A stretch of DNA of 64,000 bases from NCBI GenBank assembly GCA_031402655.1, contig JANNSO010000139.1:3120-67119 (forward strand), in the 5' to 3' direction. Under the pieces are notes generated by a model. It made no database searches. It was given only the letters and a program-made list of their open reading frames with translations, and had not been told where the DNA came from. Below are positions 4,232-63,998 of this stretch, in pieces (the first letter of the stretch is position 1; each line of letters begins with the position of its first letter). Both the position numbers and the translations under genes were made by a program. Source of the stretch: Spirochaetota bacterium (GTDB lineage Bacteria; Spirochaetota; Spirochaetia; Treponematales; UBA12059).

Positions 4232-4369
4232 GAGAATATCTCCAAGTAGTGTTTTGGGAAATTGCTTGCAGGGAGGCTCATATTATAGTAAAAAGCGGAC
4301 GCCTTACAAGGGCAGGCGAGCCTGCCAAAAGCGGGCGAAAGTTGCATCTCCTTGCAGTTCGGTTATCCC

Positions 4370-4684
4370 TTACAAAATTAGATAGGGTATCCGGCCTATT
4401 GCCAATCCATGCTCAAGAGCGCCGGGATTTTCGGCGTTCCCCGACTTTTCAGGGTAGAGATACACGATTCCATTGCTCGACAAACCTCCGGCATGCCAAG
4501 CCCTGCGCTGCTCCAATACGGGTTCCGAACCAAGAATTATGCAGACTCCCATCTCGGCCAAGGCCAGAGACAGCTCCATGTCGCTCATCAGTCTTCCGGG
4601 CGTGATGGAAACTGTCAGATGCGGAGCACCGAGCATGCTGGACACAAAGCCTCCCATAATTCGAAATATCTTGCTATTAGCCAT
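4370..4684 (-). CDS. small hypothetical protein
   Basis: ORF fills the gap and is divergent from the HTH regulator; no recognisable motif; start uncertain (4684 or 4705). Confidence 0.4.
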   Translation of the reverse strand: MANSKIFRIMGGFVSSMLGAPHLTVSITPGRLMSDMELSLALAEMGVCIILGSEPVLEQRRAWHAGGLSSNGIVYLYPEKSGNAENPGALEHGLAIGRIPYLIL

Positions 4685-4752
4685 GATATCTGTGCCAATA
4701 GACAATTGTCAATCAAAGTTTACGGGGCTACGATCATCTAACATCAAAAGCC

Positions 4753-5094
4753 ATGAACGTACTACACGAGCTTCTCGCGAAAAACATAAAACTCTACCGG
4801 GCTCAAAGCAATATGACCCAAGAAATACTCGCAGAGAAGGTTGCGCTATCCACTCCGTATCTGGGCGAAATAGAAACGGGAAGAAAATATCCTTCATCGG
4901 ACGTCTTTTTAAGACTTGCCATCGCCTTGGGCGTCAAGCCATACCAGCTGCTAATGGAGCACCCCTTTTACGCCAGCGCAGAGGAATTGAATAAAGGAGA
5001 CGACATTCGCGGCATATTGGCCCGCGAGTTCAATGCCATGCTGGATAAGCACTTCCTTCCGTCGGAGCCTCCCGACAGGAAGGACCAGCCCTAA
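4753..5094 (+). CDS. XRE-family HTH transcriptional regulator
   Basis: NIKLYRAQSNMTQEILAEKVALSTPYLGEIETGRKYPS. Confidence 0.9.
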   Translation: MNVLHELLAKNIKLYRAQSNMTQEILAEKVALSTPYLGEIETGRKYPSSDVFLRLAIALGVKPYQLLMEHPFYASAEELNKGDDIRGILAREFNAMLDKHFLPSEPPDRKDQP

Positions 5095-50502: not shown

Positions 50503-51270
50503 TTATTTATTTTTAACGGCATATGCGCTGCTGGTAACAAGGTAGGTCTCAAGCATGCGTTCCCCCTTGGAGCTTCCGCCCAGCAGCATTACGAGACCCG
50601 ATACCATATTGGGCAAAGTCCATTGCATCGTGGAAAGAGAGTTGTTCTTGAACCCTTCCCAATCGTTGCTTACGCCGGCCAGTATCGCCTGCCCGCCAAG
50701 CACCGCGAGCGGAGTCACGACTCCGATGATGCCGCCCGTAATCCGGCTTCTTTTGGCCTCGCCTGCTATGTCCTTCATGATTCCGTAGGCAAGCGCTTCC
50801 TGGACCACAGGATCGTTTTCGGAATACAGATAGGCGTAGCGGGTAAGGTATTTATCCTTGGGCTGCCCCAGCGTAACCAGCCCTATCCCGCCCACCAGGA
50901 TGCCGAGACCCGCGGTACCAGCCGTAAACCCGCGGGCCATCATCTGCTCATTGGAATCGGTGAAACTGGAACTGGGAGCAAGAAAGGCATAGCCAGCCGC
51001 GGCGCCGCCCAAAAGCAGAATTCCACTGCCCACGGAGGTAAGTATAACGCCTGATTTTATGCGGCTTACTTCATTGCCCTTAAAATATTCATCGAGCAGG
51101 GATAGGGCAAACTGAGGATCCGCATCGGGAACGGACGCCGAACCCGCAAGAGGATTGGGTAACGGGGTTCCCGCCAAAGTAGAATCTTGCGCAAAAATAC
51201 TGCTGCCAGCATTGTTCGCGCACAAAAGCAGAATCGTCATTGCTAAACCAAAAAATCGTTTCATAGCCAT
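50503..51270 (-). CDS. membrane/secreted hypothetical protein
   Basis: Signal peptide plus Gly-rich hydrophobic hairpins. Confidence 0.7.
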   Translation of the reverse strand: MAMKRFFGLAMTILLLCANNAGSSIFAQDSTLAGTPLPNPLAGSASVPDADPQFALSLLDEYFKGNEVSRIKSGVILTSVGSGILLLGGAAAGYAFLAPSSSFTDSNEQMMARGFTAGTAGLGILVGGIGLVTLGQPKDKYLTRYAYLYSENDPVVQEALAYGIMKDIAGEAKRSRITGGIIGVVTPLAVLGGQAILAGVSNDWEGFKNNSLSTMQWTLPNMVSGLVMLLGGSSKGERMLETYLVTSSAYAVKNK

Positions 51271-51315
51271 CTCCTGTTATTTTTGCTTGCCTCAATTTTA
51301 GGGGCATCTATAACA

Positions 51316-51332
51316 TTGCAGGAACCGTGCCA
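51316..51332 (-). promoter_or_regulatory. sigma54 -24/-12 promoter
   Basis: Minus strand TGGCACGGTTCCTGCAA, one mismatch to TGGCAC-N5-TTGC. Confidence 0.75.
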
Positions 51333-51415
51333 ATCTAAAATTTCTAAATTCCTATGGAAATTCGGGTAAATCCTGGGAAATTTACGCAAAATGACGGCAA
51401 AACGCTACGATATAC

Positions 51416-51452
51416 TATCAATTATGATACCTTGATGATATCACTTTTGATA
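51416..51452. promoter_or_regulatory. tandem palindromes, candidate enhancer (UAS)
   Basis: TATCA-atta-TGATA (51416-51429) and TATCA-cttt-TGATA (51439-51452). Confidence 0.6.
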
Positions 51453-51608
51453 GCCCCAGCTGGCTTGCAAAAACCAGGCACACATTCTATGGGGAGAGCG
51501 ATATGACACGAAAACCTTTTGGACGACCCCCTCACCGACCGCTTGGAGGCATACTGCAAGGAGTGCTTTCCTACGATCTGTTCCGCGCGAGGGGGATAAT
51601 CCGTCGCT

Positions 51609-52838
51609 TCAATTCGCGGGTTTTGCCGGAGGCTCTTCCGCTGGATGGCTTTCCTTGAAATCGTAAATCTCCCGGAAAATATCCAGGGCGGCAAAAAACA
51701 GCACGAGAATCAAGGGGCCGATTATCAAGCCGTTGATGCCGAAACTGGCCACTCCTCCGATGATGGCGAAAAAAATCGGCAGGGGATGCATTTTGATCGG
51801 CCCGCCCACAAGAATCGGCCGATAGAAATTATCCAGGAGGGATATACCCGCCCCGGACAGCGCAAGCAGCAAAATACCGGCCGGCACGCTGTTCATGAAT
51901 ACGTACGAGATGCCAACGGGCATCCAGATCGCGCTGGCTCCGACTATGGGAATAAACGAGCATATCGATACGAGCACTCCCAGCAGCAAGGCGCCGTTTA
52001 CCCCAAAAATCAAAAACAGCGTAAAGGCGATGCAACCTTGAATCAGTGCCACGAGCATGTTTCCGCGGATAAGCTGGCGGGTGGTTTCCTTGAAGTGCCT
52101 GATGAATTTATCCATGTATTCGCTTCTGATGGGCACGGCCTTGATGAATATCTCCAGCAGGTAATGCCCGTCCATAAAGAAAAAATACAGGGTAAAAGTC
52201 ATGAAGGCCAGGGCCAGGACGAAGCCTCCCAGATTCTGAACGACCTTCGTGGAAATGTTGACGATCGCCGCCTGGTTAAGTTTTAAAAACTCCATGACAA
52301 CCTTCTGCAAATCCAGGCTTCCAAGATCTATGGCGCCTCCGCTCAATGAATACAGGAAGTCTCCCAAACGCGCAAGCGGAGCCAAATTGGCAACCGCCGC
52401 GATGGGTCCTTGAGGCTCCTGGGCAGCGGAGGCCAATCCAGTCTCAACCAGCACATGGGACAGCCGACCTTTAAATACATAGGGGTTGGATTTCAAGAAT
52501 TCCAGGATATCCCCGATTGCATCGCTGGATTGTTTTATCAATAGAAAAACCAGCATGGATAGGGGGACGACGATTATGAAGACGGCCGAAATGGACACCA
52601 GCCCGGCGGAAAGAGCCCGGCGCAGCGAAGCAAAGCGCTTTTTGCCGATACCGGCATTTTTTATTCCCGCAAGCCGTACGTAGACGGGATCGAGAAACCC
52701 GAACAGTATCGCCGCCCAGAGCAGCACGGTCAAGAACGGCATGAAAAGCCGCATTACAAGAACGAACAGCACAATGAAGACCGCGAAAAAAATAAGCCTC
52801 TGAATCGTGTTTTTTTCGAGAATGTCGCTGGCTTTCAT
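51609..52838 (-). CDS. AI-2E (PerM/UPF0118) family transporter
   Basis: YFFFMDG, FIPIVGA, DNFYRPIL, HPL..F..IIGG, GLIIGP. Confidence 0.9.
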   Translation of the reverse strand: MKASDILEKNTIQRLIFFAVFIVLFVLVMRLFMPFLTVLLWAAILFGFLDPVYVRLAGIKNAGIGKKRFASLRRALSAGLVSISAVFIIVVPLSMLVFLLIKQSSDAIGDILEFLKSNPYVFKGRLSHVLVETGLASAAQEPQGPIAAVANLAPLARLGDFLYSLSGGAIDLGSLDLQKVVMEFLKLNQAAIVNISTKVVQNLGGFVLALAFMTFTLYFFFMDGHYLLEIFIKAVPIRSEYMDKFIRHFKETTRQLIRGNMLVALIQGCIAFTLFLIFGVNGALLLGVLVSICSFIPIVGASAIWMPVGISYVFMNSVPAGILLLALSGAGISLLDNFYRPILVGGPIKMHPLPIFFAIIGGVASFGINGLIIGPLILVLFFAALDIFREIYDFKESHPAEEPPAKPAN

Positions 52839-52855
52839 GTCCATCTCCTGTGTTT

Positions 52856-52890
52856 GGGAGCTCTTCAAACCTGAAGTTTTTAGAGTTCCT
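52856..52890. repeat. degenerate copy of hairpin 1194-1225
   Basis: ggagctcttcaaacctgaagtttttagagttcc versus agacctctcaaaactgaagttttgagaggtct. Confidence 0.6.
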
Positions 52891-53871
52891 CTATGCGTTT
52901 TTCTTTCCCAGTGCAAGGCGACGTTTACGGAATTCCATGATAGGTTTGTCTCCGGGGAACAAATTCTCCCCGGTTCCGGTTCCGTCACCGCGAGGGATTT
53001 GAGTGTTGACGATGCGCCTGTCCTGGCGCGCGATTATCCGGCTCATGAGTAGCCCCAGCCCGTCCACGAGCCACGAGAACGGTGGCAGGAGCATAAACGA
53101 CTGATACCAGCGTAAATATAAAATAGTGTGCTCCGCATCCACCGGCACGAATGCCGCGGAGATGCGGACTTTGTCGCCGATGCGGTTTTCCCATAGATTG
53201 GGCAGGATAAACTCCAGCTTATAGTCTCTCGTAGGGTCGGGAACGGGAACCTGTTCCGGCGTCCTGGGTTTCTGGCCTTCGTCTTTCACGTTGTATACGT
53301 AGGCGAAGAACAGGTTGTCAGCCTTCCACTCCAATCCCGGGCCTTCCACAAGCGTGCGATTACCCCTTCCTATCGTAGTGCGATGAACAAACGGCAAATG
53401 GGCGACATCGAGCTGATTTTCGGCGGCGCGGGTATAATGATTATTCCAGGGATCCTGCAGGCTTGCATAATGCCTGAAATTCTTAAGGTCCTCGAAAAAC
53501 GGAGGCTCGGCAGGTTCCGGCTTGGCCTCGCCCCACCAGATAAATACCCAGCCCCAGTTTTCGTGGACCGGATAGGAAAGCATTTGAAACTCTTTTGGCA
53601 CGGGCGCATCGCGGCCATTAGCCGGTATCTTTACGCAGCGGCCGGTGGAATCATACTCAAGGCCGTGAAAGGGGCAGCGCGCGTGGCCGTCTACAATGTC
53701 GCCCAGAGCCAGGGAAGCGCCGCGATGCGCGCATTTGTCGAGAAAACAGCGGGCGGCGCCTGTTTCGTCCCGCCAGAAAATAAGGCGTTCCCCGAGGCGC
53801 ATGAAACCCACGGGCTTCCCCCTGGGAATCTCCCCGGATTCGAGGACGGCATACCATAAATTTTTTATCAC
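52891..53871 (-). CDS. Rieske non-heme iron oxygenase alpha subunit (VanA-like)
   Basis: CAHRG...CPFHG Rieske motif; ENQLDVAHLPFVH and QD iron ligands. Confidence 0.9.
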   Translation of the reverse strand: MIKNLWYAVLESGEIPRGKPVGFMRLGERLIFWRDETGAARCFLDKCAHRGASLALGDIVDGHARCPFHGLEYDSTGRCVKIPANGRDAPVPKEFQMLSYPVHENWGWVFIWWGEAKPEPAEPPFFEDLKNFRHYASLQDPWNNHYTRAAENQLDVAHLPFVHRTTIGRGNRTLVEGPGLEWKADNLFFAYVYNVKDEGQKPRTPEQVPVPDPTRDYKLEFILPNLWENRIGDKVRISAAFVPVDAEHTILYLRWYQSFMLLPPFSWLVDGLGLLMSRIIARQDRRIVNTQIPRGDGTGTGENLFPGDKPIMEFRKRRLALGKKNA

Positions 53872-54887
53872 CGCTTTCTCCTGAGCTTTTTCCTGCTCTG
53901 GTTGAGCCGCGACCGCTCAAGCTCGGCCGCCGCCAGCAGCGACGCCTTGCTTTTCTCGGAGCGGGATAAAAAAGCTATCAAGAGCGCGCCGGCCGCGATC
54001 ATGAGGAAGCAGAGCAGCTGGCCCATGGAGAAATTGAGCGGCGTGCTGAAAAGATGGATGGACGCGTCGGGATTCCCGAATTTAATTATATATCCGAGCG
54101 CCTCGTCCGGCTCCCTGAAATATTCCAGGATAAATCTTATAAACCCGTAACCGGCCAGAAAGGAGCCTGTCGCGAATCCATGGAACGGCGATTTTTTTCG
54201 AACCGTGAACCACAGCAGCAGTCCAAGCACGATGCCTTCGAACAGGGCTTCGTACAGCTGGGAAGGATGCCTTGGCAGATTGACGTTGCCGCCTATCGCA
54301 AGCACGCCAGTCTTGGCCATAATCTCCTGTACCCAGGGAAATTCAACCGGAAACATCTTGGCATTCGGAAATACCATGCCCCAGCGGGCTGTGGTCACCT
54401 TGCCCCAAAGTTCGCCGTTGATAAAATTGCCCAGCCGCCCGAATGTGTAACCGAAGGGTATCGAAACGGCCATCAAGTCAGTCCACTCGAGCAAATTTCG
54501 CTTGTGCCTGATGCAATACGCCATCATACCCAGGAATCCGCCTACGACGCCTCCATGGAACGACATTCCCGCAAAGCCCGAAAAACGACCGCTCGAGTCG
54601 AAGGGCCAGAAAATCAACCAGGGCTTCTGCAAATAGAAGCTGTCGTAGATCAGGGTACCGAACAGCCTTGCGCCGATGATGAGCCCCACGATCCCGAACA
54701 TAAAGAAGCTGCCGACATCGTCATCGGAAAAGCCCAGCTTTTTCCGGCGAACCTGATATCGAAACAGCAGATAGGCGATTCCAAAAGCGACAAGATACAT
54801 CAATCCGTACCAGCGCACCGGAAAATTAGGCCAGAACGGAAAAATCTGGGGTTTGAGCCAGGAAGGAAACTGGATGGCGGCTAGCAT
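53868..54887 (-). CDS. lgt: prolipoprotein diacylglyceryl transferase
   Basis: RWYGLMY, GMSFHGG, GRLGNFINGELWG, RHPSQLYE, RFILEYFREPD. Confidence 0.96.
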   Translation of the reverse strand: MLAAIQFPSWLKPQIFPFWPNFPVRWYGLMYLVAFGIAYLLFRYQVRRKKLGFSDDDVGSFFMFGIVGLIIGARLFGTLIYDSFYLQKPWLIFWPFDSSGRFSGFAGMSFHGGVVGGFLGMMAYCIRHKRNLLEWTDLMAVSIPFGYTFGRLGNFINGELWGKVTTARWGMVFPNAKMFPVEFPWVQEIMAKTGVLAIGGNVNLPRHPSQLYEALFEGIVLGLLLWFTVRKKSPFHGFATGSFLAGYGFIRFILEYFREPDEALGYIIKFGNPDASIHLFSTPLNFSMGQLLCFLMIAAGALLIAFLSRSEKSKASLLAAAELERSRLNQSRKKLRRKR

Positions 54888-54996
54888 GCCCGTCCTCCGA
54901 ACCGATTGGATTTCGCTATACAGGAGCGCTGCGTCAACTATATACGTTGAGCGAGCAAGGAGCAAGCTGGACAAGACGGCCACTTTGAAGTTTTGC

Positions 54997-55025
54997 TTGA
55001 CAGCTCCAAAGCCTGCCACTAAACT
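54997..55025 (+). promoter_or_regulatory. sigma70-type promoter of the lipid operon
   Basis: TTGACA-17 bp-TAAACT. Confidence 0.6.
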
Positions 55026-55049
55026 TTCAGCCAGCCAGAGGAGCAATGG

Positions 55050-56486
55050 ATGGGAAACCGGCCGCTTGATTTTAATCCCATCACCAAAGCCCGGTTACGC
55101 CCCATGCTTATAAAATCCAGGCCAATTCTATGTGCTATTTTTTTCTTCAGGCTGCTCTCGGGCTTTTACCTTCGACTGACGCTACATTGCACTGCCATCC
55201 GGATTTCTAACCCGCACAAAATGCTGGCCGCGTGGCGGGATTTCCAGGAAGGGCGTACGCGCCTGATCCTGGCGTTTCGGCATCCTTACAGCGCCGAGCC
55301 GCAAATTTTATTCCATGCCTTTAGCAAAACGCTTACCTGCGAAGCCCGAAAGGCGGGAAAGAAATTGCCCAGGGTACCGCATGCGCGCTTCGTCCACGGC
55401 TATGAAGTTGCCCTCTGGGGAGACGCAATCATCCGCTGGGTCCTGCCGCGAATCGGGGCGGTTCCCGTTTATCACACAAAACTGGATTCCAAAGGCCTAA
55501 AAGCGATACGATCCATAATCAGCGAAGGCCTTTACCCGCTGGCCATCGCGCCAGAAGGCCAGGTTTCCTACCGCAGCGAAACCGTACCCCGCCTGGAACA
55601 AGGCACGCTGCAAATGGGATTCTGGGGCGTCCAGGATATCGAAAACGCCGGGAGGACGGAGAAAGTTATTATTCTTCCGCTTTCCATCCATTATAAATAT
55701 GACCCGCGCGACCATAAAAAACTGTTGCCGCTGCTCGGCAGCCTGGAGCTCCGTTGCGGCATTGACCCGGTCGCAGCCCGCAAACTCGAGCTGCGCGAAC
55801 GTCTGGCTGCTATTGAAAACCGCGCGTTCGAGCTGGCCGAAGGCCATTATGCGGCAGCCTATGCCTATAAGCGTCCAGACTTCGCGGATCAATACGCCGA
55901 TGAAAAAACAATTACCGCGTTCCGGCGGGACTCCTTGCTTAATGCCGCCCTGGAAATCGCGGAACGAGCCCTTGGTTTCCCGGCCGGGCAATCCTCCGCC
56001 GCTGAAGCCCATGCGCCCCGCAGCGACTTGATAAGCCGCGTCTACAAAATTAGGGCGGAATGCTGGGACCGCATCTATCCGGAAAAGGCCCAAAAAGGAT
56101 TAAGCAAACTGGAAACGGCGCTGTCCGATCGGCGCGCAGGCGAAGCATGGTACGCGATGCGGCACATGGAATTCGCGGACATTGCGTTCTATCTTGATCC
56201 GGAATACCTCGACGGTCCGGACCGCACAGGGCCTTCCCTGAACAGGATCGCGGAATGCGCCAACAATCTCGCGGACCTGATGAACCGGCTTGCGGGAGGG
56301 ACGATAGCCGACCGCAGGGACTCCCTGCGAAAAATAGCCATAATCGTTCCCGGAGTGCCCCTGGATATGAGCTCGCGATGGGGTGACTACAGGGAAAACC
56401 GGAAAAAAGCGGTGCTTACCGCCACGGCTGACCTTAAAACCAGCTTTGAAAACTGCATCAAGGAGTATCTCGATGAAATCAGCTAA
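55050..56486 (+). CDS. PlsC-superfamily (lyso)phospholipid acyltransferase-like protein
   Basis: FRHPYSAEP (HX4E variant), LAIAPEG, ILPLSIHY. Confidence 0.78.
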   Translation: MGNRPLDFNPITKARLRPMLIKSRPILCAIFFFRLLSGFYLRLTLHCTAIRISNPHKMLAAWRDFQEGRTRLILAFRHPYSAEPQILFHAFSKTLTCEARKAGKKLPRVPHARFVHGYEVALWGDAIIRWVLPRIGAVPVYHTKLDSKGLKAIRSIISEGLYPLAIAPEGQVSYRSETVPRLEQGTLQMGFWGVQDIENAGRTEKVIILPLSIHYKYDPRDHKKLLPLLGSLELRCGIDPVAARKLELRERLAAIENRAFELAEGHYAAAYAYKRPDFADQYADEKTITAFRRDSLLNAALEIAERALGFPAGQSSAAEAHAPRSDLISRVYKIRAECWDRIYPEKAQKGLSKLETALSDRRAGEAWYAMRHMEFADIAFYLDPEYLDGPDRTGPSLNRIAECANNLADLMNRLAGGTIADRRDSLRKIAIIVPGVPLDMSSRWGDYRENRKKAVLTATADLKTSFENCIKEYLDEIS

Positions 56487-57846
56487 GATAAGCCCAGCCG
56501 CCGCGCCGGGCGAGAAACTCTCCCTGGGTACCAAGCTGGGATTCGGGGTCGGAGACCTCGGTGGTAATCTTTTCTTTACCGCGATGGGTTTTTGGAGCCT
56601 CAATTACCTTACCGATACCGTAGGCATCTCGGCGGCGGCCGCAGGCTTGGCCATCATGATAGCAAAGATATGGGATGCCCTGATCGACCCGGTAATCGGC
56701 TTTGCCTCGGACCGTACGCAGACCCGCTGGGGCCGCAGGCGACCATACCTCTTGTTCGGAGCAATACCGCTGGTCCTGTCGATGTGGTACTTCTTCTCCA
56801 CGCCTGCCTTCTCCACCGATATCGGCGGCGCGATATGGGCGGTTCTGGCGCTCTGCCTGCTTAATACGGCTTACAGCCTGGTAAATATTCCTTACGGCTC
56901 CCTTACTCCCGAACTGACGAAAGACTACAAGGAACGAACCTCGCTCAACGGTTTCCGGTTCAGCTTCGCGGTCATAGGGACGATTCTAGGCGCGGCCATC
57001 GTGCTGCCGATAGTAGGCCTGGCAGGTGGAGACAAGTCTCTGGGATTTTCCATTGTCGGATTGACTTTCGGCCTGGTCATGGCAATTACCATATTGATAA
57101 CGTTTTTCTCGGTGCGCGAGCCCGATCGTTCGCGCACCCCTGTTCCGACCGAAGGATTTTTCGCCACTTTCCTGGCGGTTTTCAAGGATAAGACCTACGT
57201 GCGGCTCATCCTTATCTATGGATGCAACCTTACCGGCATTACCTTCGTTCAGACAATTCTCGTGTACTACTTCAAGTATCTATACCGTAACGAGGGCATG
57301 ACCACCATGGCCATGATAGCGCTTCTCGTTACCGCCATGGTTTTCGTTCCTATCTCCGTTGCCATCGCAAAGAAAATCGGAAAAAAGCGCACGTACCAGC
57401 TGGCTCTCGGAATCCTGTCGCTGAGCTGCATGACCATTTTTGCGCTTGGCCATATCCTGGGCATGTACTTTACCGTCGGAGTCATGGTATTTGCCGGTAT
57501 CGGCGTTGGACTTGGCTACGTTCCGCCTTTTGCCATGCTTCCGGACATCGTGGAAGTAGACGCGATTTCGACAGGCAAACGAAAGGAAGGCGCATACTAC
57601 GGCATGTGGACTTTTATCTCCACCCTCGGCGTCTCCCTTGCCCCTGCCCTTACCGGATTATTCCTGGGCATTTCCGGTTTTATGGCCGACAAAGAACAGA
57701 CACAGAGTACGCTCAACGCGATACGCCTGATAATAGGCCCCATCCCGGCGGTCATCTTTGTTATGGGAATCATACTTTTAAACCGTTATCGCCTGGACGA
57801 AAAGACATATAACGGCATACTTGCCCAAAGACAGATCCATGAGTGA
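56473..57846 (+). CDS. MFS transporter, GPH/MelB family
   Basis: GFGVGDLG, WDALIDP...SDRT.TRWGRRRPY, PYGSL.PELT..Y.ER. Confidence 0.9.
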   Translation: MKSAKISPAAAPGEKLSLGTKLGFGVGDLGGNLFFTAMGFWSLNYLTDTVGISAAAAGLAIMIAKIWDALIDPVIGFASDRTQTRWGRRRPYLLFGAIPLVLSMWYFFSTPAFSTDIGGAIWAVLALCLLNTAYSLVNIPYGSLTPELTKDYKERTSLNGFRFSFAVIGTILGAAIVLPIVGLAGGDKSLGFSIVGLTFGLVMAITILITFFSVREPDRSRTPVPTEGFFATFLAVFKDKTYVRLILIYGCNLTGITFVQTILVYYFKYLYRNEGMTTMAMIALLVTAMVFVPISVAIAKKIGKKRTYQLALGILSLSCMTIFALGHILGMYFTVGVMVFAGIGVGLGYVPPFAMLPDIVEVDAISTGKRKEGAYYGMWTFISTLGVSLAPALTGLFLGISGFMADKEQTQSTLNAIRLIIGPIPAVIFVMGIILLNRYRLDEKTYNGILAQRQIHE

Positions 57847-60800
57847 ACGAGACCTGCACGTCGGCTATGACCTGGGATCGGAAACCGTCTATGCGGTTGT
57901 CCTGGACGGGGAAGGGCGCATCGAACTGGCCATGCCACCGTATATGCATTTCGGCAATCCATTCGATGCGCTCGCCGAGGCTCACGGGGAAATAATCCGC
58001 CTAGTAGGCAAGGACCGCATCAAGGGTTTCGGTTTTACCGGCTTCTCCGGCAGGCTCGTCGCGGAGAAAACGGGTAATCCGTTTTGGTACGATACCATCA
58101 CGATATCCAAAGGAGCCAAAATACTCTCCCCCGACGCGCGCTATGTCGTGCACCTTGGTTCCAAAGACCCTTATTTTTTCGAGATAGAAGCAGGATCTGA
58201 TGACGATCCGGGCTGTGTGTCGGACCACGCCACCGGCACCAAATGCGGAGGCGGATCGGGAATATTAATTAACAAACAGGCTCGCCGATTTTTCGCGGAA
58301 GCAGTGCCGGCGCATATCGACATCGAGCAAGGCAGCGAGACGGAACGCATCGCCACCCGCTGGAAAAACCGAAAAGCGCTACAGGACCAGATGGAAGGCA
58401 TCCACATCCTGGCCGAGGCCTCCATGACCAGCTCGGACAAATGCCTTGAAGTGGGCGGTCGATGCGGCGTTATCATCCAGTCGGACATGATCCACATGCA
58501 GAATTCAGGCGAGCAGATAAAAAACATCCTCAAGGGAATGTATGCCCGGATCGCCGGAAATTTCCGCTGCGACGTTCTTGGCACGCGCAGCATCGACGCC
58601 TCGCTCAAGGCCATAGCCACCGGAGGAGCTTTTCTTAACAGAAGCCTTGCGGGCGTGTTTTCGGGGGAACTTGGGCTTGAACTCGGGCTTCCCCCGCATT
58701 TCGACAAAGTCGGAGCATTCGGCGCGGCACTCAAGTCGCTCGAAGAAGGAAACGAATCCTCCTTCGACGCCGGCAGGCTTAAGGACGTCGTCGCGGCGCA
58801 CAAAGCCAACATAGCATTTGCCCCGCCGCTCGCCTCGGCACTGAACCGCGTCATAAACCACAAAAACGAGGCTGCCATCAGGAAAACCTCCGGCGGTCTG
58901 ACCGTATTCCGCGAACCCCAGGGGAAGGCTCGCGTCGTCCTTGGCATGGACGGGGGCTCAACGACCACCAAAGCCATCGTAGCCGATGCCGAAGACCTGT
59001 CCATAATCGCCGAAATTTGCCTGGATACGGACGGCAAGCCCCTGGAAACCGCCCAGAAGGTATTCGCCGAAATACGGGACGCCCTTAACGACTCGATAGA
59101 AGTCGAAGGAATCGCGTACACCGGATCATCCGGCGCTTTTTATTATAAATTATTCACTAACCACGGCATCGAGGCCGGCGGCAGCGGCACGGATATCGTA
59201 AAGGACGAGATAACCTGCCACGCCGCGGGAGTCAAGCTCTTCGACGAAAAAGTGGACACGATTTTCGAGTGCGGCGGCCAGGACGCGAAATTTACCGTAT
59301 TCGGCCCCGACGGAAACGTTCGAAAAGCCAAGATGAATCTGTCATGCATGGCCGGAACCGGTCAGTCCATGAAGAACATGCTGGACATGCTCGGCTTCGA
59401 CTTCGAGTCGTTCGACGATCTTGCCCTCTCAGCGACGCGTACGCCGGTATGCGATGAAATGTGCGCAATTTTTACGGAGGCCGGCGTTCTCAAGCTTGTC
59501 GCCCTTGGCTTTCCCAAAGAAGAAATCGCCGCGGCCATCGCCTATGGCTTCATGGGCGGTTACGCCAATAAGTTCGTTGGCAGCGAAACCTTCGGCACCT
59601 ATGCCTCGGCGCAAGGCGGGCCATTCAAGGGGCTTGCATGCCTCGCTGCGCTCGCCCTGCATACCGGCGCGGTGATAAACGCATTCCCCCACCGCCAGCT
59701 TTTCGGGGCATTGGGTGCCGCCGCCATCGCCCGCAATAGACTGCGAGAGGTTCAAGGACGAGGGGCAAAAGCCGTTCTTCGCTGGAAGGGTTTCTCGCTT
59801 GCGGACGCGGTTTTCGACAAGAGCGTGGATCAATGCAGCAAGGTCGTGGAGAATAGTTGCGGCGTGCGCGACTGCAGGCTCCAAATATACGGCCATGGCA
59901 GGGACCTTATCTTCTCCGGCGGGCTCTGTCCCAAAGGCAACACTGAGGCTGCAGGAAAACGCACACCCGACTATGTCGGCCTCTATAAGACCATGCTGGA
60001 GAGGGAAATCCGCAAGTACTCCTTCAAGCCCGAAGAAACCGATCCTTCCGACGGCCCCCGCATTCTCATTCCCCGCAGCCTGCATTTTCTTAACGAACGG
60101 TCGATCCTCCTGTGCGCATTCTACAAAAATCTCGGTTTCAAGGTCGTCGTCTCACCGGAATCCAATGATCATATAGCCAAGCTCGGCATCGCCCGGTCGC
60201 ACTCGGAAGCCTGCTACCCGTCCAAGCTGCACAATGGCCACGCAGCCTATCTCAAAAAGTGGCTGCGGCCGGGTAAGGACAAGCTTTGCCTCATTAATTT
60301 CCTGGGGAAGGGCGACAAGGGTGCCGCACAGAACCAGGCCAAGACCTGCCCCTACGTCTCCGGCGCGGGTTTCGCCGCCAAAGAAGCCATCAAGCTGGCG
60401 ACCGAGGACGCCCTGCTTCCACTGATCATATTCAACGACCCGATATACCCGGCGGAGGTCGATTTCGCCGATGACCTTTCGCGCGCCTTCGCGAATGCTC
60501 CACAGACGGGAAAATTTACCGTCCGGCGGGTAAGGCAAGCCCTTAGGGATGCGGAAAAAGCACAAGCCGAATTCCTCGTCCAGGTCTACGCCACGGGCGA
60601 ATCCATAGTGGAGAGGCTCAAGGCCAAGAAAGAAACCGTTTACATCGGCATAGGACGAGGTTATACTTTATTCGACGACAAAGCCAGCTCAAAAATCCAC
60701 GAACTGTTCATCGCCAACGGCCTGCACTTCATGCCGGCATTCTTCCTCAACAGACCCGAAAACGATTTCTCCGAAATCGTGCACCACATGTACTGGTACC

Positions 60801-62383
60801 AGGGTCGCGAGATGGTCCGCTATTCGCTCCGCACTGCCCTGGATCCGGACTTCTACGGCGTGCGCGAGACCAACTTCAATTGCGGCCCCGACGCGATGCT
60901 CTCGTATCACGAGACCAGGCTTTTCGACAACGCCAAGAAACCGTATTTAACCCTGCAGACCGACGGCCATAACTCCAATGCGCAGTTCGGCACGCGCACC
61001 ATGGCATTCAATGAGGTCGTCAAGAATCACACTTCCGGCCCGGTTGCCATAGAACAGCTTAGAACTCCCGCTTCGCATGCAAGGGGCTTCGACAAGCGGC
61101 TCCTGGGAATACCCAACATGGGAACCGAGAGTTCGGACGCTCTGGCCGCCGTGTTCAGGTCGGTAGGATGCGCATCCGAGCTGATGCCCACGATGACCAG
61201 GGAATCGAACTACTGGGCGCGTAAATATCTTATAACAAACAATTGCCTGCCCATGCACATACTCTTCGGCGACAGCTTCGCCTGGCTCAAGCAGAAGGAA
61301 GCGGAAGGCTTGAACCCCAACGAAGATCTCGCTCTTTTTATACCCATGGCGGGCGGTCCCTGCCGACTCGGCCAATACCATATCATTACGCGTTATTTCC
61401 TGGACATGGCCGGCTACGACAGGGTACCCATCGTCAATCCGGCCGCATACCTCGACTGGGAGAACATTCCTCTTTCGCCCAAGCGCCTGGGAAAGCTCCG
61501 CCAGGGAATTGCCAAATCCGTTATCGCATCGGACATAATCTACGATGCCCGCCTCAGGACCAGGCCTTACGAAATAAACCCCGGCGAGACCGACCGCGTC
61601 TTTGCGGCTATCCATAAAGAGTTTATAGGTATTGTCGAACGCGGAAGCGACTTGAAGGAACTCGAGGCGCTGATGGCCAAAGCCCATGGATCCTGCGCCG
61701 GGATTCCCGTTATAAAAGATAAATTCCCCCTGGTAGGACTGTTCGGCGAGATTTTCGTCAGAAGCCATACCGGGTCCAACGAGGAATCGATACGGCTTCT
61801 GGAACGCCACGGGCTCGAGGTCGCGCCGCGCCTGATAGCGGACATGCTGGAGTACAACAACCGGATGCAGAAGGATGCCTTCCTCAAGGAACGGCGCTAC
61901 AAAGCCTGGTTCATCGCCATCATCAAGGGCATCTATATGCGCACGGTGGAGAAACGCCTGTCCGCCGCCTTTGAGGACTATCTGGGAGGCAGATTCCGTC
62001 TGCGCCCGCTGGAAGTGTATGGAATCCTGCGCAAGCATAATATCTTCGATATACGCATCAAGGGTGAAGCCGGCATATCGATAGGCACAACCTTCAACAT
62101 GATGAACGGCAACCCGGAAAACCTGCACGGCGTCTATCATCTTGAACCGTTCGGCTGCATGCAGGAATGCGTCGCCGTATCCAAGATACGCTCGCTCATC
62201 GATCTGAAGCGCCAAAACTCCCCGGAAATGGCGGACCGCATCATTCCCTACCTCGTTGGCGTGTTCGGCGATTCCGAACTGCCCAACATGGAAGCCGAGA
62301 TAGCGATGTTCGCCGAGAAATGCTATGCGCGGCGCGATGCGGAAGAAAGCAGGAAAAACAGGGATTCCATTACCATTGCCTGA
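57839..62383 (+). CDS. fused CoA-activase (2x BadF/BadG/BcrA/BcrD ATPase) + reductase/dehydratase domains, PlsA/PlsR- or Ger-like
   Basis: YDLGSET, KCGGGSG, MDGGSTTTK, ECGGQDAK, SCMAGTG; CYPSKL.NGH, FNCGPD, GGPCRLGQY, GEIFVR, PFGCMQ. Confidence 0.85.
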   Translation: MSERDLHVGYDLGSETVYAVVLDGEGRIELAMPPYMHFGNPFDALAEAHGEIIRLVGKDRIKGFGFTGFSGRLVAEKTGNPFWYDTITISKGAKILSPDARYVVHLGSKDPYFFEIEAGSDDDPGCVSDHATGTKCGGGSGILINKQARRFFAEAVPAHIDIEQGSETERIATRWKNRKALQDQMEGIHILAEASMTSSDKCLEVGGRCGVIIQSDMIHMQNSGEQIKNILKGMYARIAGNFRCDVLGTRSIDASLKAIATGGAFLNRSLAGVFSGELGLELGLPPHFDKVGAFGAALKSLEEGNESSFDAGRLKDVVAAHKANIAFAPPLASALNRVINHKNEAAIRKTSGGLTVFREPQGKARVVLGMDGGSTTTKAIVADAEDLSIIAEICLDTDGKPLETAQKVFAEIRDALNDSIEVEGIAYTGSSGAFYYKLFTNHGIEAGGSGTDIVKDEITCHAAGVKLFDEKVDTIFECGGQDAKFTVFGPDGNVRKAKMNLSCMAGTGQSMKNMLDMLGFDFESFDDLALSATRTPVCDEMCAIFTEAGVLKLVALGFPKEEIAAAIAYGFMGGYANKFVGSETFGTYASAQGGPFKGLACLAALALHTGAVINAFPHRQLFGALGAAAIARNRLREVQGRGAKAVLRWKGFSLADAVFDKSVDQCSKVVENSCGVRDCRLQIYGHGRDLIFSGGLCPKGNTEAAGKRTPDYVGLYKTMLEREIRKYSFKPEETDPSDGPRILIPRSLHFLNERSILLCAFYKNLGFKVVVSPESNDHIAKLGIARSHSEACYPSKLHNGHAAYLKKWLRPGKDKLCLINFLGKGDKGAAQNQAKTCPYVSGAGFAAKEAIKLATEDALLPLIIFNDPIYPAEVDFADDLSRAFANAPQTGKFTVRRVRQALRDAEKAQAEFLVQVYATGESIVERLKAKKETVYIGIGRGYTLFDDKASSKIHELFIANGLHFMPAFFLNRPENDFSEIVHHMYWYQGREMVRYSLRTALDPDFYGVRETNFNCGPDAMLSYHETRLFDNAKKPYLTLQTDGHNSNAQFGTRTMAFNEVVKNHTSGPVAIEQLRTPASHARGFDKRLLGIPNMGTESSDALAAVFRSVGCASELMPTMTRESNYWARKYLITNNCLPMHILFGDSFAWLKQKEAEGLNPNEDLALFIPMAGGPCRLGQYHIITRYFLDMAGYDRVPIVNPAAYLDWENIPLSPKRLGKLRQGIAKSVIASDIIYDARLRTRPYEINPGETDRVFAAIHKEFIGIVERGSDLKELEALMAKAHGSCAGIPVIKDKFPLVGLFGEIFVRSHTGSNEESIRLLERHGLEVAPRLIADMLEYNNRMQKDAFLKERRYKAWFIAIIKGIYMRTVEKRLSAAFEDYLGGRFRLRPLEVYGILRKHNIFDIRIKGEAGISIGTTFNMMNGNPENLHGVYHLEPFGCMQECVAVSKIRSLIDLKRQNSPEMADRIIPYLVGVFGDSELPNMEAEIAMFAEKCYARRDAEESRKNRDSITIA

Positions 62384-63998
62384 TTATCTTTCCTTCCCGG
62401 TTGATGTATGCCGAAGGGCCTTCGTCCTTAAACCGCACGGACGCCCTGCCCGGCCAGGTTTCCAGTACTTCATCGAACATCGGGGGAATTACCCAGGCGC
62501 CGAAAAAGTCCGCCAATCCCCAGCGCGGCGGAAAATCCCCGTTGCCCTCGGCCAGCCAGACAAAGCCCGCAAAGGCCTCGCGCCCATCGCGAAACAGGAA
62601 TGGTATGATTGTCTTTCCGGTTTTATCGATATAGCCATAATTGCCGTCTTTCTTAACGCGCGCAAGACCTCCGGAAAAGGGCCAGGCTTCCTGAAACTGC
62701 GCGGATAGAGCTATGCGTCCTTGCGGGTCTGCATAGCCCCATTTCCCGTCGGCCATGACCGCCGACAAGCCTTCGGTAAAATTGCGCGCCGCATCGAAAG
62801 TCGGCTTTATTACCCAGCTCCCCGAATCATTCATGAACCCGGCTTTTCCGCCTTCCCGCACGACGAACCAGCCCGCCTCCGCCGCTTTACCGCCGCGTAT
62901 CGATACGGAGTGGGAACCCAGGGGAATTATTTCTTTGCCGTTCCGGTCGATTACTCCCATAAGCCCGTTTGTTCGAACCACGGCGCGGGAGTTTAAGAAA
63001 GGCGAAGCAAAATCGTAGCGCGCTTCGATAGCCATGCGTCCCGTTTTATCTACATAGCCCCAGAGCTTGCCTAATTTAACCGGAGCCAGGCCATCGCCAA
63101 ACTTTTCAGCCTCGTCAAAGCGCGGAACAATTACTACGCTTCCTTTGGCATCGATGTAACCCCAGCGCGACTTGTCGTCCCTTATCGGCGCAAGCCCTTC
63201 GGAAAAAGCCTTAAGCGCATAAGGAACCTTTTCCATGACCGCATTGCCGTCCAGGTTGATGAAACCGGATTGACCCGCGTTGCCGTTGTAGGCCAGCATG
63301 CCTTGGCCCAAGGAATTAAAGGACAGGGAATTGATGCCTCCATGCCAGAGAACCCGCCCATCCGTGCTTATTACCTGATCCATTCTCTTAAGAAAAACAA
63401 GTGCCAGCGGACCTTCATAGTTTTCTATATAGGACCATGATGGATTTTCTATAATCCATCGACCGTCGAGACCGATAAAACCAGCATGTTTAGTATCCGC
63501 CACTGCCGCGCGTCCCTCGGAAAAAGGCTGGGCATGCAAAAACCATCCGGAGATCAGTTTGCCGTCGGCGTCAATGTAGCCTTGCATCAGCTTGCTGTTT
63601 TCTACCAGTGCCCGACCCTCGCTCATGACTCCTATGCTCCTGTACGCCGGCTCAAGGATCAATCGCCCAGTTAAATCGCTCAGGCCCTGCAAGCCGCCTT
63701 TGCCTACGACGACGCGCCCGCCGCTCGGCGGAAAAACCGCGTCCCATTCCGGTTTGATGGCGATTTTACCGGCCTCGTCGACAAGCCCCCAGAAGGCACC
63801 AACACGCACGGGTGCGAAACCTTCGGAAAATGGCCAGGCCTGGTCAAACGCCGGACTTATAATAAATTTACCTTTTTTGTTTATGTATCCCCAGCGCCCG
63901 TTTAGCTCTACGGCCGCCTTGCCTTCGGAAAACGAACCGGCCTGCGTATAGGCGAGGGGTATAACTTCCTTTCCGGCCGCGTCGAGGAAGCCCCAGAG
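62370..63998 (-). CDS. WG (KWG Leptospira)-repeat protein, 5' end beyond the window
   Basis: More than 10 repeats of FSEGLA.V....WGYID..G..VI; frame stays open to the window end. Confidence 0.9.
   Translation of the reverse strand, partial: LWGFLDAAGKEVIPLAYTQAGSFSEGKAAVELNGRWGYINKKGKFIISPAFDQAWPFSEGFAPVRVGAFWGLVDEAGKIAIKPEWDAVFPPSGGRVVVGKGGLQGLSDLTGRLILEPAYRSIGVMSEGRALVENSKLMQGYIDADGKLISGWFLHAQPFSEGRAAVADTKHAGFIGLDGRWIIENPSWSYIENYEGPLALVFLKRMDQVISTDGRVLWHGGINSLSFNSLGQGMLAYNGNAGQSGFINLDGNAVMEKVPYALKAFSEGLAPIRDDKSRWGYIDAKGSVVIVPRFDEAEKFGDGLAPVKLGKLWGYVDKTGRMAIEARYDFASPFLNSRAVVRTNGLMGVIDRNGKEIIPLGSHSVSIRGGKAAEAGWFVVREGGKAGFMNDSGSWVIKPTFDAARNFTEGLSAVMADGKWGYADPQGRIALSAQFQEAWPFSGGLARVKKDGNYGYIDKTGKTIIPFLFRDGREAFAGFVWLAEGNGDFPPRWGLADFFGAWVIPPMFDEVLETWPGRASVRFKDEGPSAYINREGKIIRQW

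Follow-up and report, generated by a model that had tools for sequence, protein, structure and literature searches.

Three overlapping genes in a 64,000-nucleotide (nt) stretch of a Spirochaetota genome (assembly GCA_031402655.1, contig JANNSO010000139.1; the whole stretch is called the window here) are predicted to encode an acyltransferase (gene 1), a major facilitator superfamily (MFS) transporter (gene 2) and a single-chain enzyme of the PlsA/Ger superfamily (gene 3). Do they form one pathway to ether lipids, or do they belong to separate units? The original prediction took the first view, in which the products of this locus import or flip a lysolipid, re-acylate it and reduce its sn-1 ester. 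We found that genes 1 and 2 are a widely conserved pair, a cassette that this prediction had missed, and that the reductase adjoins the pair in one genus only. Our preferred reading, which we hold tentatively, is that genes 1 and 2 (unit A) would be an autonomous cassette resembling LplT-Aas that imports or flips an acyl acceptor and then acylates it, with gene 3 (unit B) acting as an independent reductase of the ether-lipid type. The two units are joined in one probable transcription unit only in this genus, and the best reading of the junction is that the reductase joined the pair fortuitously or recently.

The evidence that carries this reading is the distribution of the pair. A homolog scan with gene 1, taking one genome per species, yielded 78 loci from Treponemataceae, Rectinemataceae, Breznakiellaceae, Christensenellales, Oscillospiraceae and other Clostridia, and tblastn searches with the three proteins were run on each. 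An MFS_2 homolog lies directly downstream of gene 1 on the same strand at 66 of the 74 testable loci, in Spirochaetota as well as Clostridia (the other 4 of the 78 have too little downstream sequence). The offset ranges from -97 to +1016 nt (median -20) and the transporter identity is 35-84% (median 64%). Three further loci have the two genes adjacent and convergent, and five have no MFS_2 homolog within 9 kilobases (kb). A divergent pair on contig C94 of genome G099 has the order reversed, with the MFS_2 gene first and the acyltransferase second (L105:2151-3491 and 3584-4828). Pfam searches of 113 flanking open reading frames (ORFs) at 28 loci, picked by length and covering ORFs up to ~2-3 kb from the pair, revealed no recurrent third partner; neither a glycosyltransferase or other lipid-building gene nor a glycoside hydrolase or sugar kinase recurs beside the pair there. 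An AMP-binding gene of the acyl-activating type was seen upstream of the pair at 1 of these 28 loci (L076). Because the adjacency survives two phyla, order reversal and full turnover of the surroundings, it suggests that transporter and acyltransferase are functionally coupled.

The distribution of gene 3 is different. A gene-3 homolog (E≤1e-5) was found at one of the 78 pair loci, L002 in the same-genus genome G179, which keeps the three genes together with lgt (protein identities of 67%, 84% and 90%). Conversely, gene-1 or gene-2 homologs flank gene-3 relatives at none of 80 metagenome loci (27-81% identity), ten of which combine at least 45% identity to gene 3 with at least 2.3 kb of upstream sequence. 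In G099, the 6.7 kb upstream of the gene-3 ortholog (62%) encode an amylase, an arginine deiminase, a DAHP synthase and TPR proteins, and the acyltransferase-like gene lies elsewhere, directly after the MFS_2 gene. In G171, the pair is located on contig C96 and followed by 1.3 kb without a reductase, and the start of the reductase (80%) is on contig C126, 130 nt from its end. A ~25-nt stretch recurs, inverted, in the final ~110 nt of C96 (L104) and the first ~70 nt of C126 (L098); it may be a repeat at which the assembly broke between the pair and the gene-3 ortholog, and the contig split is no measure of their spacing there.

Co-occurrence at the level of whole genomes was also examined in 50 pair-bearing genomes, those with the longer of the 78 loci. 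A DUF2229 protein is present in 26 and was not found in 24 of them. The completeness of the metagenome-assembled genomes (MAGs) is not given, and single absences are therefore weak except in chromosome records, which account for four of the 24 (L040, L045, L046 and L048; L046 carries the acyltransferase without an adjacent transporter). Co-occurrence in 26/50 gives no support for dependence between pair and reductase. Taken together, when the neighbourhood was followed across Spirochaetota and Clostridia the reductase adjoined the pair in one genus only, and the linkage expected of a three-gene import, re-acylation and reduction module is not conserved (1/78, 0/80, and 24/50 without DUF2229). 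The case shows that a conserved pathway cannot be read from genes that overlap in a single genus.

In the window itself, the arrangement originally described, three overlapping genes behind a TTGACA-17-TAAACT site and divergent from lgt, is indeed present. According to the ORF table and translations, the genes are co-directional on the + strand: gene 1 at 55050-56486 (478 amino acids (aa), with GGAG 6 nt before its ATG), gene 2 at 56473-57846 (457 aa) and gene 3 at 57839-62383 (1514 aa). The long ORF of gene 2 spans 56383-57846, and the ATG at 56473, with AAGGAG 7 nt upstream, is the likely start; that of gene 3 spans 57821-62383, the 1514-aa product starting from the ATG at 57839. Genes 1 and 2 thus overlap by 14 nt (ATG at 56473, stop at 56486) and genes 2 and 3 by 8 nt (ATGAGTGA). 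In ~30 of the 66 pair loci the tblastn match of the transporter reaches back into the acyltransferase gene, beginning 70-97 nt ahead of its end. Both frames may be used across this junction, or translation of the transporter may in some genomes begin further upstream; for the window (56383-56486), the AAGGAG-ATG at 56473 speaks for the short overlap. The predicted sigma-70-like site (54997..55025, + strand) lies in the lgt/gene 1 intergenic region, matches the consensus at 10/12 positions and ends ~25 nt ahead of the gene 1 start codon. The region holds 7 promoter-like sites, compared with 4.4 +/- 2.2 in shuffles, and the match by itself is not above chance; the promoter is plausible because of its position in a divergent intergenic region and not because of the statistics. 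The site scan of the region found no terminator-like site standing out between genes 1, 2 and 3. A look for sequencing runs that contain this DNA gave four DNA runs, all from a single study of freshwater sediment and two of them possibly the source, and no RNA run.

Gene 1 (55050..56486, +) belongs to an unannotated family. Searches against Pfam and NCBIfam at E≤0.01 gave zero matches, PF01553 included. A word-indexed search retrieved 374 relatives, and among the 120 listed every source name was 'hypothetical protein', without a Pfam domain. Exhaustive search of 1.84 billion representatives with the gene 1 profile reached 729 clusters at a threshold of E≤0.001, with 198 of them passing E≤1e-30 as well, that is, a family of ~730 clusters counted at 50% identity; among the matches listed these are mostly 400-500 aa long and align nearly end to end. 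In the ESM language-model atlas, gene 1 sits beside clusters of 446-488 aa in which 20-71% of members carry PF01553. A search of the profile against the PDB by sequence was discarded, as it returned just a spurious coiled-coil match (E 0.26), and the fold was therefore found by structure.

An AlphaFold (AF2) model of gene 1 built from a 46-member alignment reached a predicted local distance difference test score (pLDDT) of 88.8 and a predicted template modelling score (pTM) of 0.88. In Foldseek, acyltransferases were the sole matches with probability 1.00. The VIA Z score was 17.6 against the squash glycerol-3-phosphate acyltransferase (GPAT) 1iuq (root-mean-square deviation (rmsd) 5.4, 249 aligned residues), 17.5 against human GPAT1 (8e4y), 17.4 against an algal GPAT (8ia1) and 15.9 against Thermotoga maritima PlsC (5kym), followed by PatA (~11) and LpxM (9), with the next unrelated rows at ≤5.2. 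The matches extend from the N-terminus to residue 478, the core being interrupted at residues ~217-417 by a 200-aa, helical, Arg-rich insertion. Judged from this confident model, gene 1 is a GPAT/PlsC-fold acyltransferase.

The sequence motifs of gene 1 agree with the claim that the acyltransferase has HX4E in place of HX4D. The H78-x4-E83 dyad (H-P-Y-S-A-E) is invariant in 46/46 aligned members, as are E169, G170 and Q171 of the motif PEGQ(V/I)SY at 168-174; the alignment shows the same for R77, Y80, Q85 and Y174, and for numerous Arg, Glu and Trp positions from 330 to 422. A G099 relative with 30% identity to gene 1 passes PF01553 (24.6 bits, cut-off 23), and its canonical HX4D (H-P-S-R-K-D) aligns with the H-P-Y-S-A-E of gene 1. 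E83 thus sits at the catalytic acid position, since the Asp of this HX4D stands opposite it. A precedent for a catalytic Glu is LpxM, whose PDB entry 5knk names E127 as catalytic residue in its title. The G099 acyltransferase is the sole family member seen to pass PF01553. At two Treponemataceae/Rectinemataceae loci (L078:10456-11874 and L079:11861-13279, both -), a convergent gene for a 472-aa PF01553 acyltransferase directly follows the gene-1 homolog, or the pair; it was considered as kin of gene 1 and rejected, there being no significant sequence similarity.

Gene 2 (56473..57846, +) encodes a transporter of the GPH/MFS_2 cation symporter type, and its assignment to the MelB/MFSD2A family stands: PF13347 matched at 2.7e-94 (316.6 bits, cut-off 27) and the GPH subfamily model TIGR00792 at 299.9 bits (cut-off 231.35). 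The nearest NCBIfam equivalogs are the glucuronide, YagG and melibiose carriers, all far under their cut-offs (MelB equivalog, 197.9 versus 456). The cation-site residues Asp55 and Asp59 of MelB are kept as D68 and D72 in a HMMER alignment, and gene 2 is probably cation-coupled. The galactoside ligands Lys18, Asp19, Asp124 and Trp128 are replaced by Gly31, Asn32, Asn138 and Gly142, of which G31, N32 and N138 are invariant in 20/20 transporters of the pair; by these residues gene 2 is not a MelB ortholog. In the account of PMC8329300, the galactoside ligands are conserved in MelB orthologs only, and the cation site in nearly all members including MFSD2A. Mapping of the MelB ligands as a predictor of substrate was dropped on that ground.

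Gene 3 (57839..62383, +) is assigned to the PlsA/Ger superfamily because its predicted product combines two BcrAD ATPase domains, DUF2229 and a fold like that of the (R)-2-hydroxyisocaproyl-CoA dehydratase (Had) subunits and the double-cubane cluster protein (DCCP). The original description of a single-chain PlsA/Ger-type architecture therefore holds. PF01869 (BcrAD_BadFG) matched two stretches (5e-32), followed by PF09989 (DUF2229; 103 bits, cut-off 29.4), and the acyl-CoA dehydratase activase model TIGR00241 scored 135.8 bits against a cut-off of 125.4. ASKHA/BcrAD ATPase domain 1 (approximately 57857..58840, +) contains Cys136 and Cys209 and a ~30-aa insertion between them. ATPase domain 2 (58940..59731, +; best PF01869 stretch 374-637 of the long ORF) contains Cys503 and Cys542 at a spacing of 39. 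A Cys-rich segment (59834..59929, +; Cys666, Cys674, Cys679 and Cys697) precedes reductase domain 1 (Red1), whose DUF2229 core at 60062..60733 (+; PF09989) has a fold resembling Had, DCCP and Bzd proteins. C136/C209, C503/C542, C674, C679, C697, C792, C837 and C1015 are invariant across 4 paralog and ortholog sequences and are also kept in 27 members of the clade described below, in which C666, too, is invariant together with C674, C679 and C697. We take the invariant Cys to be [4Fe-4S] cluster ligands as in HgdC and Had enzymes.

The claim of two ATPase and two Cys-containing reductase-type domains stood for the ATPases and Red1 and less well for the last domain. In a model of residues 640-1514 (pLDDT 69.9), Red1 (model residues 79-425) aligned with HadC (3o3m_D) at Z 14.2 (rmsd 4.2, 278 aligned). 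Its best scores were 14.2 for HadB/C, 13.5 for DCCP and 13.2 for BzdO, and its matches comprised (R)-2-hydroxyisocaproyl-CoA dehydratase, the double-cubane cluster protein and subunits of Bzd/Mbd benzoyl-CoA reductase (Z 14.2-11.4). The putative second reductase-type domain (Red2; 61094..62365, +) covers the C-terminal ~425 aa, carries Cys1136, Cys1175 and Cys1440 and is more divergent. It has generic alpha/beta, Rossmann-like structural matches only (Z≤8.4), and Pfam found nothing in the last 514 aa even at E≤10. A comparison of Red1 with Red2 by hhalign aligned Cys-x-Pro motifs weakly (E 0.0077, probability 5%). A second Cys-containing reductase-type domain is thus plausible, with the fold seen for the first domain only.

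A single-gene plsA whose product runs Act1-Act2-Red1-Red2 has been reported from E. faecalis, L. cremoris and B. longum (PMC12838417). The parts of gene 3 follow one another in the order seen in these PlsA proteins and in the PlsA-PlsR anaerobic plasmalogen synthase of C. perfringens: two of the activase type, then two of the reductase/dehydratase type, the second of them putative. Like PlsA it is one polypeptide of ~1400-1640 aa in the Had family; it falls in a separate clade, and the likeness noted here is one of architecture. Ger of T. maritima (Tmari_0479) is reported to consist of BBD plus small D and H stretches (BBDHDDH) and to yield 1-O-alkyl glycerol in anaerobic E. coli, and the BBD core (2x PF01869 plus PF09989) is given as the part conserved among all alkyl-ether producers (PMC13159169). 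In common with Ger of T. maritima and D. alkenivorans, gene 3 has the BBD core, and its clade includes the same taxa as the reported homologs, namely Spirochaetes, Woesearchaeota and Pacearchaeota (PMC13159169). The small PF06050 (HGD-D) stretches that Ger is said to carry did not turn up in gene 3, either at E≤0.01 in the whole protein or at E≤10 in the last 514 aa; the Ger part that holds them varies according to its authors (PMC13159169). PMC13274423 treats Ger and PlsA as not assignable from primary structure at present and notes that genomes often have several homologs, and an attempt to class gene 3 as one or the other was abandoned on that account. Compared with HadBC/HadI, DCCP/DCCP-R and class I benzoyl-CoA reductases, gene 3 shares the Red1 fold (Z 13-14) and ATPases that match TIGR00241; unlike 2-hydroxyacyl-CoA dehydratases, DCCP and benzoyl-CoA reductases, it carries all its parts in a single chain that bears the DUF2229 signature. 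Genes of CoA-ester metabolism do not recur near gene-3 relatives at 13 annotated loci.

Sequence comparison further places gene 3 in a rare, divergent clade of Spirochaetes and DPANN archaea. Homologs at E≤1e-20 occur in 125 of 151 genomes sampled from the same order, and those with at least 60% identity in 4 of the 151: that of the window itself, the same-genus G179 (90%), G171 (80%) and G099 (62-63%, split over two contigs). Against a collection of 5.8 billion proteins, the reductase part matched ~60 clusters at 38-82% identity, including Spirochaete MAGs. The clade contains three full-length Ca. Woesearchaeota proteins at 45-49% identity (among P0147, P0150, P0155 and P0172) and ~850-aa reductase-only forms, one of them from Ca. 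Pacearchaeota (~41%), which by its length implies a split enzyme with a separate activase. Outside the clade, identity falls to ≤29% ('CoA protein activase' proteins, some with PF06050). The source genome has three BBD proteins, gene 3 included; one paralog lies on contig C85 at 51041-55516 (L083:6042-10517, -; 1491 aa, DUF2229 198 bits) and is followed by an overlapping GT4 glycosyltransferase gene, and the other, on contig C114 at 3-2855 (L084; DUF2229 182 bits), is cut off by the contig end. Gene-3 relatives stand alone in variable contexts, with unrelated housekeeping genes as neighbours at the 13 annotated metagenome loci. At two of these 13, the gene immediately downstream encodes a class III (multihaem) cytochrome c (L119:11573-12052 and L151:11602-12066). 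Single-chain PlsA/Ger enzymes are already known, and what gene 3 adds is this divergent, uncharacterised clade.

What we observed is the gene structure, the folds, the motifs and the conservation pattern, and on this basis a mode of action can be proposed for each unit. In unit A, the cation-coupled GPH/MFS_2 transporter would bring an acyl acceptor to the cytoplasmic face, which could be a lysolipid or else a glycerophosphodiester (the backbone of a deacylated lipid, for example), and gene 1 would acylate it from acyl-acyl carrier protein (acyl-ACP) or acyl-coenzyme A (acyl-CoA), salvaging or repairing membrane lipid. We draw this mechanism from the analogous cases of E. coli LplT-Aas, eukaryotic MFSD2A and yeast Git1/Gpc1. 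A glycerophosphodiester acceptor seems equally reasonable because the best folds for gene 1 are glycerol-3-phosphate acyltransferases and because GPH carriers usually take hydrophilic solutes. In unit B, two fused HgdC-type ATPase domains would hold one [4Fe-4S] cluster between them and push low-potential electrons to the Had/DCCP-like Fe-S reductase module. Its most likely substrate would be a membrane lipid, whose sn-1 acyl ester it would turn into a vinyl or alkyl ether in the manner of PlsA and Ger.

The closest known parallel of unit A is instructive in both its likenesses and its differences. LplT is reported to flip lysophospholipid inward and the bound PlsC-type domain of Aas to re-acylate it, the two proteins forming a flip-then-acylate complex via the Aas transferase domain (PMC11416262). 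As in the LplT-Aas systems of Gram-negatives, an MFS transporter gene here stands beside one for a PlsC-superfamily acyltransferase. Gene 2, however, is of the GPH/MFS_2 family, presumably a different one from that of LplT, and gene 1, unlike Aas, lacks an acyl-ACP synthetase domain, has HX4E and a helical insertion of 200 aa, and goes unrecognised by PF01553. MFSD2A is a eukaryotic Na+-dependent lysophosphatidylcholine symporter, and the GPH family can thus carry lysolipids. Gene 2 shares family PF13347 and the cation-site aspartates with MFSD2A and MelB and lacks the galactoside ligands of MelB. The yeast glycerophosphocholine (GPC) pathway, with the MFS transporter Git1, the GPC acyltransferase Gpc1 and Ale1, follows a similar logic of salvage by transporter plus acyltransferase, the comparison being one of logic and not of homology. 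In bacteria, GPC scavenging has been shown in streptococci and xanthomonads, whereas the carriers of the cassette are environmental anaerobes.

Several points weigh against the reading of an LplT/Aas-like cassette beside an independent ether-lipid-type reductase. The substrates of all three proteins, the way in which transport runs and any link in metabolism from unit A to unit B are our inferences. Gene 2 is equidistant from the solved structures of MelB (130 bits) and mouse MFSD2A (127 bits), and the loss of the MelB sugar ligands is uninformative on substrate because only MelB orthologs conserve them. Gene 1 lacks an acyl-ACP synthetase or AMP-binding domain, as no Pfam domain at all was found in it, and no fused acyltransferase-MFS protein appeared among the longer proteins searched, which is weak evidence. 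With 4 strong ketoacyl-synthase matches in the genome, pointing to its own fatty-acid synthesis, and 7 PF01553 matches over cut-off, salvage would be a supplement or repair and not a necessity. The 8-nt overlap of genes 2 and 3 argues for selected co-expression, which purely fortuitous juxtaposition does not explain. As for gene 3, its DUF2229 score of 102 bits is the lowest of the three paralogs of the genome (198 and 182 for the others), its identity to these two paralogs is 24-27%, and that to the remaining homologs of the order is ≤31%. DPANN archaea are part of its clade, and its substrate may not be a glycerolipid ester at all.

The latter point leads to the alternative that fares best, which concerns gene 3 on its own and is weighed apart from the readings of unit A. 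We consider it possible, if on the unlikely side, that the clade comprises ATP-driven radical reductases or dehydratases for some other substrate, with the PlsA/Ger architecture alone in common. The sharp identity gap between the clade (38-82%) and the rest (≤29-31%), the existence of two more canonical BBD paralogs elsewhere in this genome and the clade members in Ca. Woesearchaeota and Pacearchaeota would all fit such a divergence. An acyl ester would not be expected in the lipids of DPANN archaea. The missing PF06050 signal, unlike in T. maritima Ger as described (PMC13159169), and the difficulty of assigning Ger versus PlsA from sequence as set out in PMC13274423 point the same way. However, all paralog-invariant Cys and the four-domain order (its last domain putative) are kept, no CoA-transferase or acyl-CoA genes recur beside clade members at the 13 annotated loci, and the characterised BBD members described reduce glycerolipid esters (PMC13159169, PMC12838417). 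Ger homologs in the same DPANN groups are, moreover, already counted as Ger-like (PMC13159169). It is more likely that gene 3 reduces an ester of the PlsA/Ger kind.

For unit A, an outward direction was considered in place of the import we propose. Here an acylated amphiphile, such as a glycolipid, an acyl-sugar or an aminolipid, would be built by the acyltransferase on the cytoplasmic side and flipped or exported by the GPH-family transporter, an arrangement that would resemble a lipid flippase encoded beside its own synthase. Enzymes of the LPLAT fold do take acceptors other than phospholipids, PatA and LpxM being among the structural matches of gene 1, and Rouxiella GlcB is reported to acylate a glucose monolipid (PMC12299268). 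The GPH family is named for glycosides, and MFS lipid flippases such as LtaA exist (PMC8866510). However, no glycosyltransferase or other lipid-building gene recurs beside the pair at the 28 loci, and the strongest folds are glycerol-3-phosphate acyltransferases (Z 17.4-17.6) as compared with 9-11 for the sugar-lipid acyltransferases. The retained cation-site aspartates fit a symporter and favour import, weakly. An outward role is therefore unlikely in our judgement, and import or flipping of the acceptor before acylation is the reading we retain.

Still less probable is the integrated pathway of the original prediction, even when confined to this genus: import or flipping of a lysolipid, re-acylation by the HX4E acyltransferase and reduction of the sn-1 ester to an ether lipid. 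What speaks for it is a single promoter-like site ahead of genes that overlap by 14 and 8 nt, without a terminator-like site of note among them, the retention of the arrangement including lgt in the same-genus genome (67%, 84%, 90%) and the fact that all three proteins plausibly act on membrane lipids. Set against this are the scarcity of the reductase beside the pair (1/78 pair loci, 0/80 metagenome gene-3 loci), the gene-3 orthologs of G099 and G171 (62% and 80%) apart from the pair, and the 24/50 pair-bearing genomes without a DUF2229 protein, four of them chromosome records. PlsA and Ger, furthermore, are reported to act alone in E. coli on ordinary diacyl lipids (PMC13159169, PMC12838417), and no dedicated feeder pathway would therefore be required. 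That there is no coupling at all, gene 2 being an ordinary sugar or glycoside symporter and gene 1 a housekeeping glycerolipid acyltransferase that are merely co-operonic, is very improbable: operons can mix functions and among NCBIfam models gene 2 comes closest to glucuronide, YagG and melibiose carriers, albeit far under equivalog cut-offs, but the pair is adjacent on the same strand at 66/74 testable loci of two phyla with reading frames that usually overlap, stays together even with reversed order while all other neighbours change, has no glycoside hydrolase or sugar kinase recurring nearby (28 loci), and shows invariant replacement of MelB sugar-ligand positions (31, 32 and 138; K18>G, D19>N, D124>N) in 20/20 of its transporters.

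The more useful result is thus the two-gene cassette, in which a ~730-cluster GPAT-fold family named 'hypothetical protein' (among the names listed) is almost always adjacent to a MelB/MFSD2A-family transporter. To our knowledge, lysolipid uptake and acylation in bacteria outside LplT-Aas are genetically unresolved, and the cassette offers a concrete candidate for them that can be tested in E. coli. In the account of PMC6805115, the bacterial glycerophosphocholine pathway is likewise genetically unresolved, with the transporters for GPC and lysophosphatidylcholine and the GPC acyltransferases of bacteria unidentified. Among literature titles and abstract starts, we found no description of a bacterial GPH-family transporter paired with an acyltransferase. 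A bolder combination would be that genes 1 and 2 are the first bacterial GPH-family (MFSD2A-like) system for salvage of lysolipids or glycerophosphodiesters, with an unrecognised HX4E GPAT-fold family, and that in one Treponemataceae genus this cassette and a captured reductase of the Spirochaete/DPANN clade make up an operon turning scavenged lipid into ether lipid. We regard this as having perhaps one chance in a handful. If true, it would supply the missing transporter and acyltransferase type for GPC and lysolipid scavenging in anaerobes.

The genes around the locus are given here for completeness. The divergent neighbour lgt, for prolipoprotein diacylglyceryl transferase, is located at 53868..54887 on the - strand (PF01790, 3.4e-64; TIGR00544, 235 bits, cut-off 118.9), and its start is likely near 54887 because the family models begin matching at Met54 of an ORF that reaches 55046. 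Just past lgt, also on the - strand, are genes for a Rieske [2Fe-2S]/VanA_C oxygenase-type protein (52891-53871) and an AI-2E family transporter (51609-52988). The AI-2E transporter gene adjoins lgt in the same-genus locus L002 as well, where the Rieske gene was not detected. On the other side, a gene for a 479-aa WG-repeat protein with five PF14903 repeats (WG-containing beta repeats; 62370-63809, -) converges on gene 3; the two reading frames overlap by 14 nt, which leaves no space for a terminator between them. A transporter-acyltransferase juxtaposition of a different kind was seen on contig C63 of the source genome (L186:235-2556 and 2553-3473), where a 773-aa protein consisting of an unassigned ~350-aa N-terminal part and an MFS domain is followed by an overlapping hexapeptide/serine-acetyltransferase-like gene.

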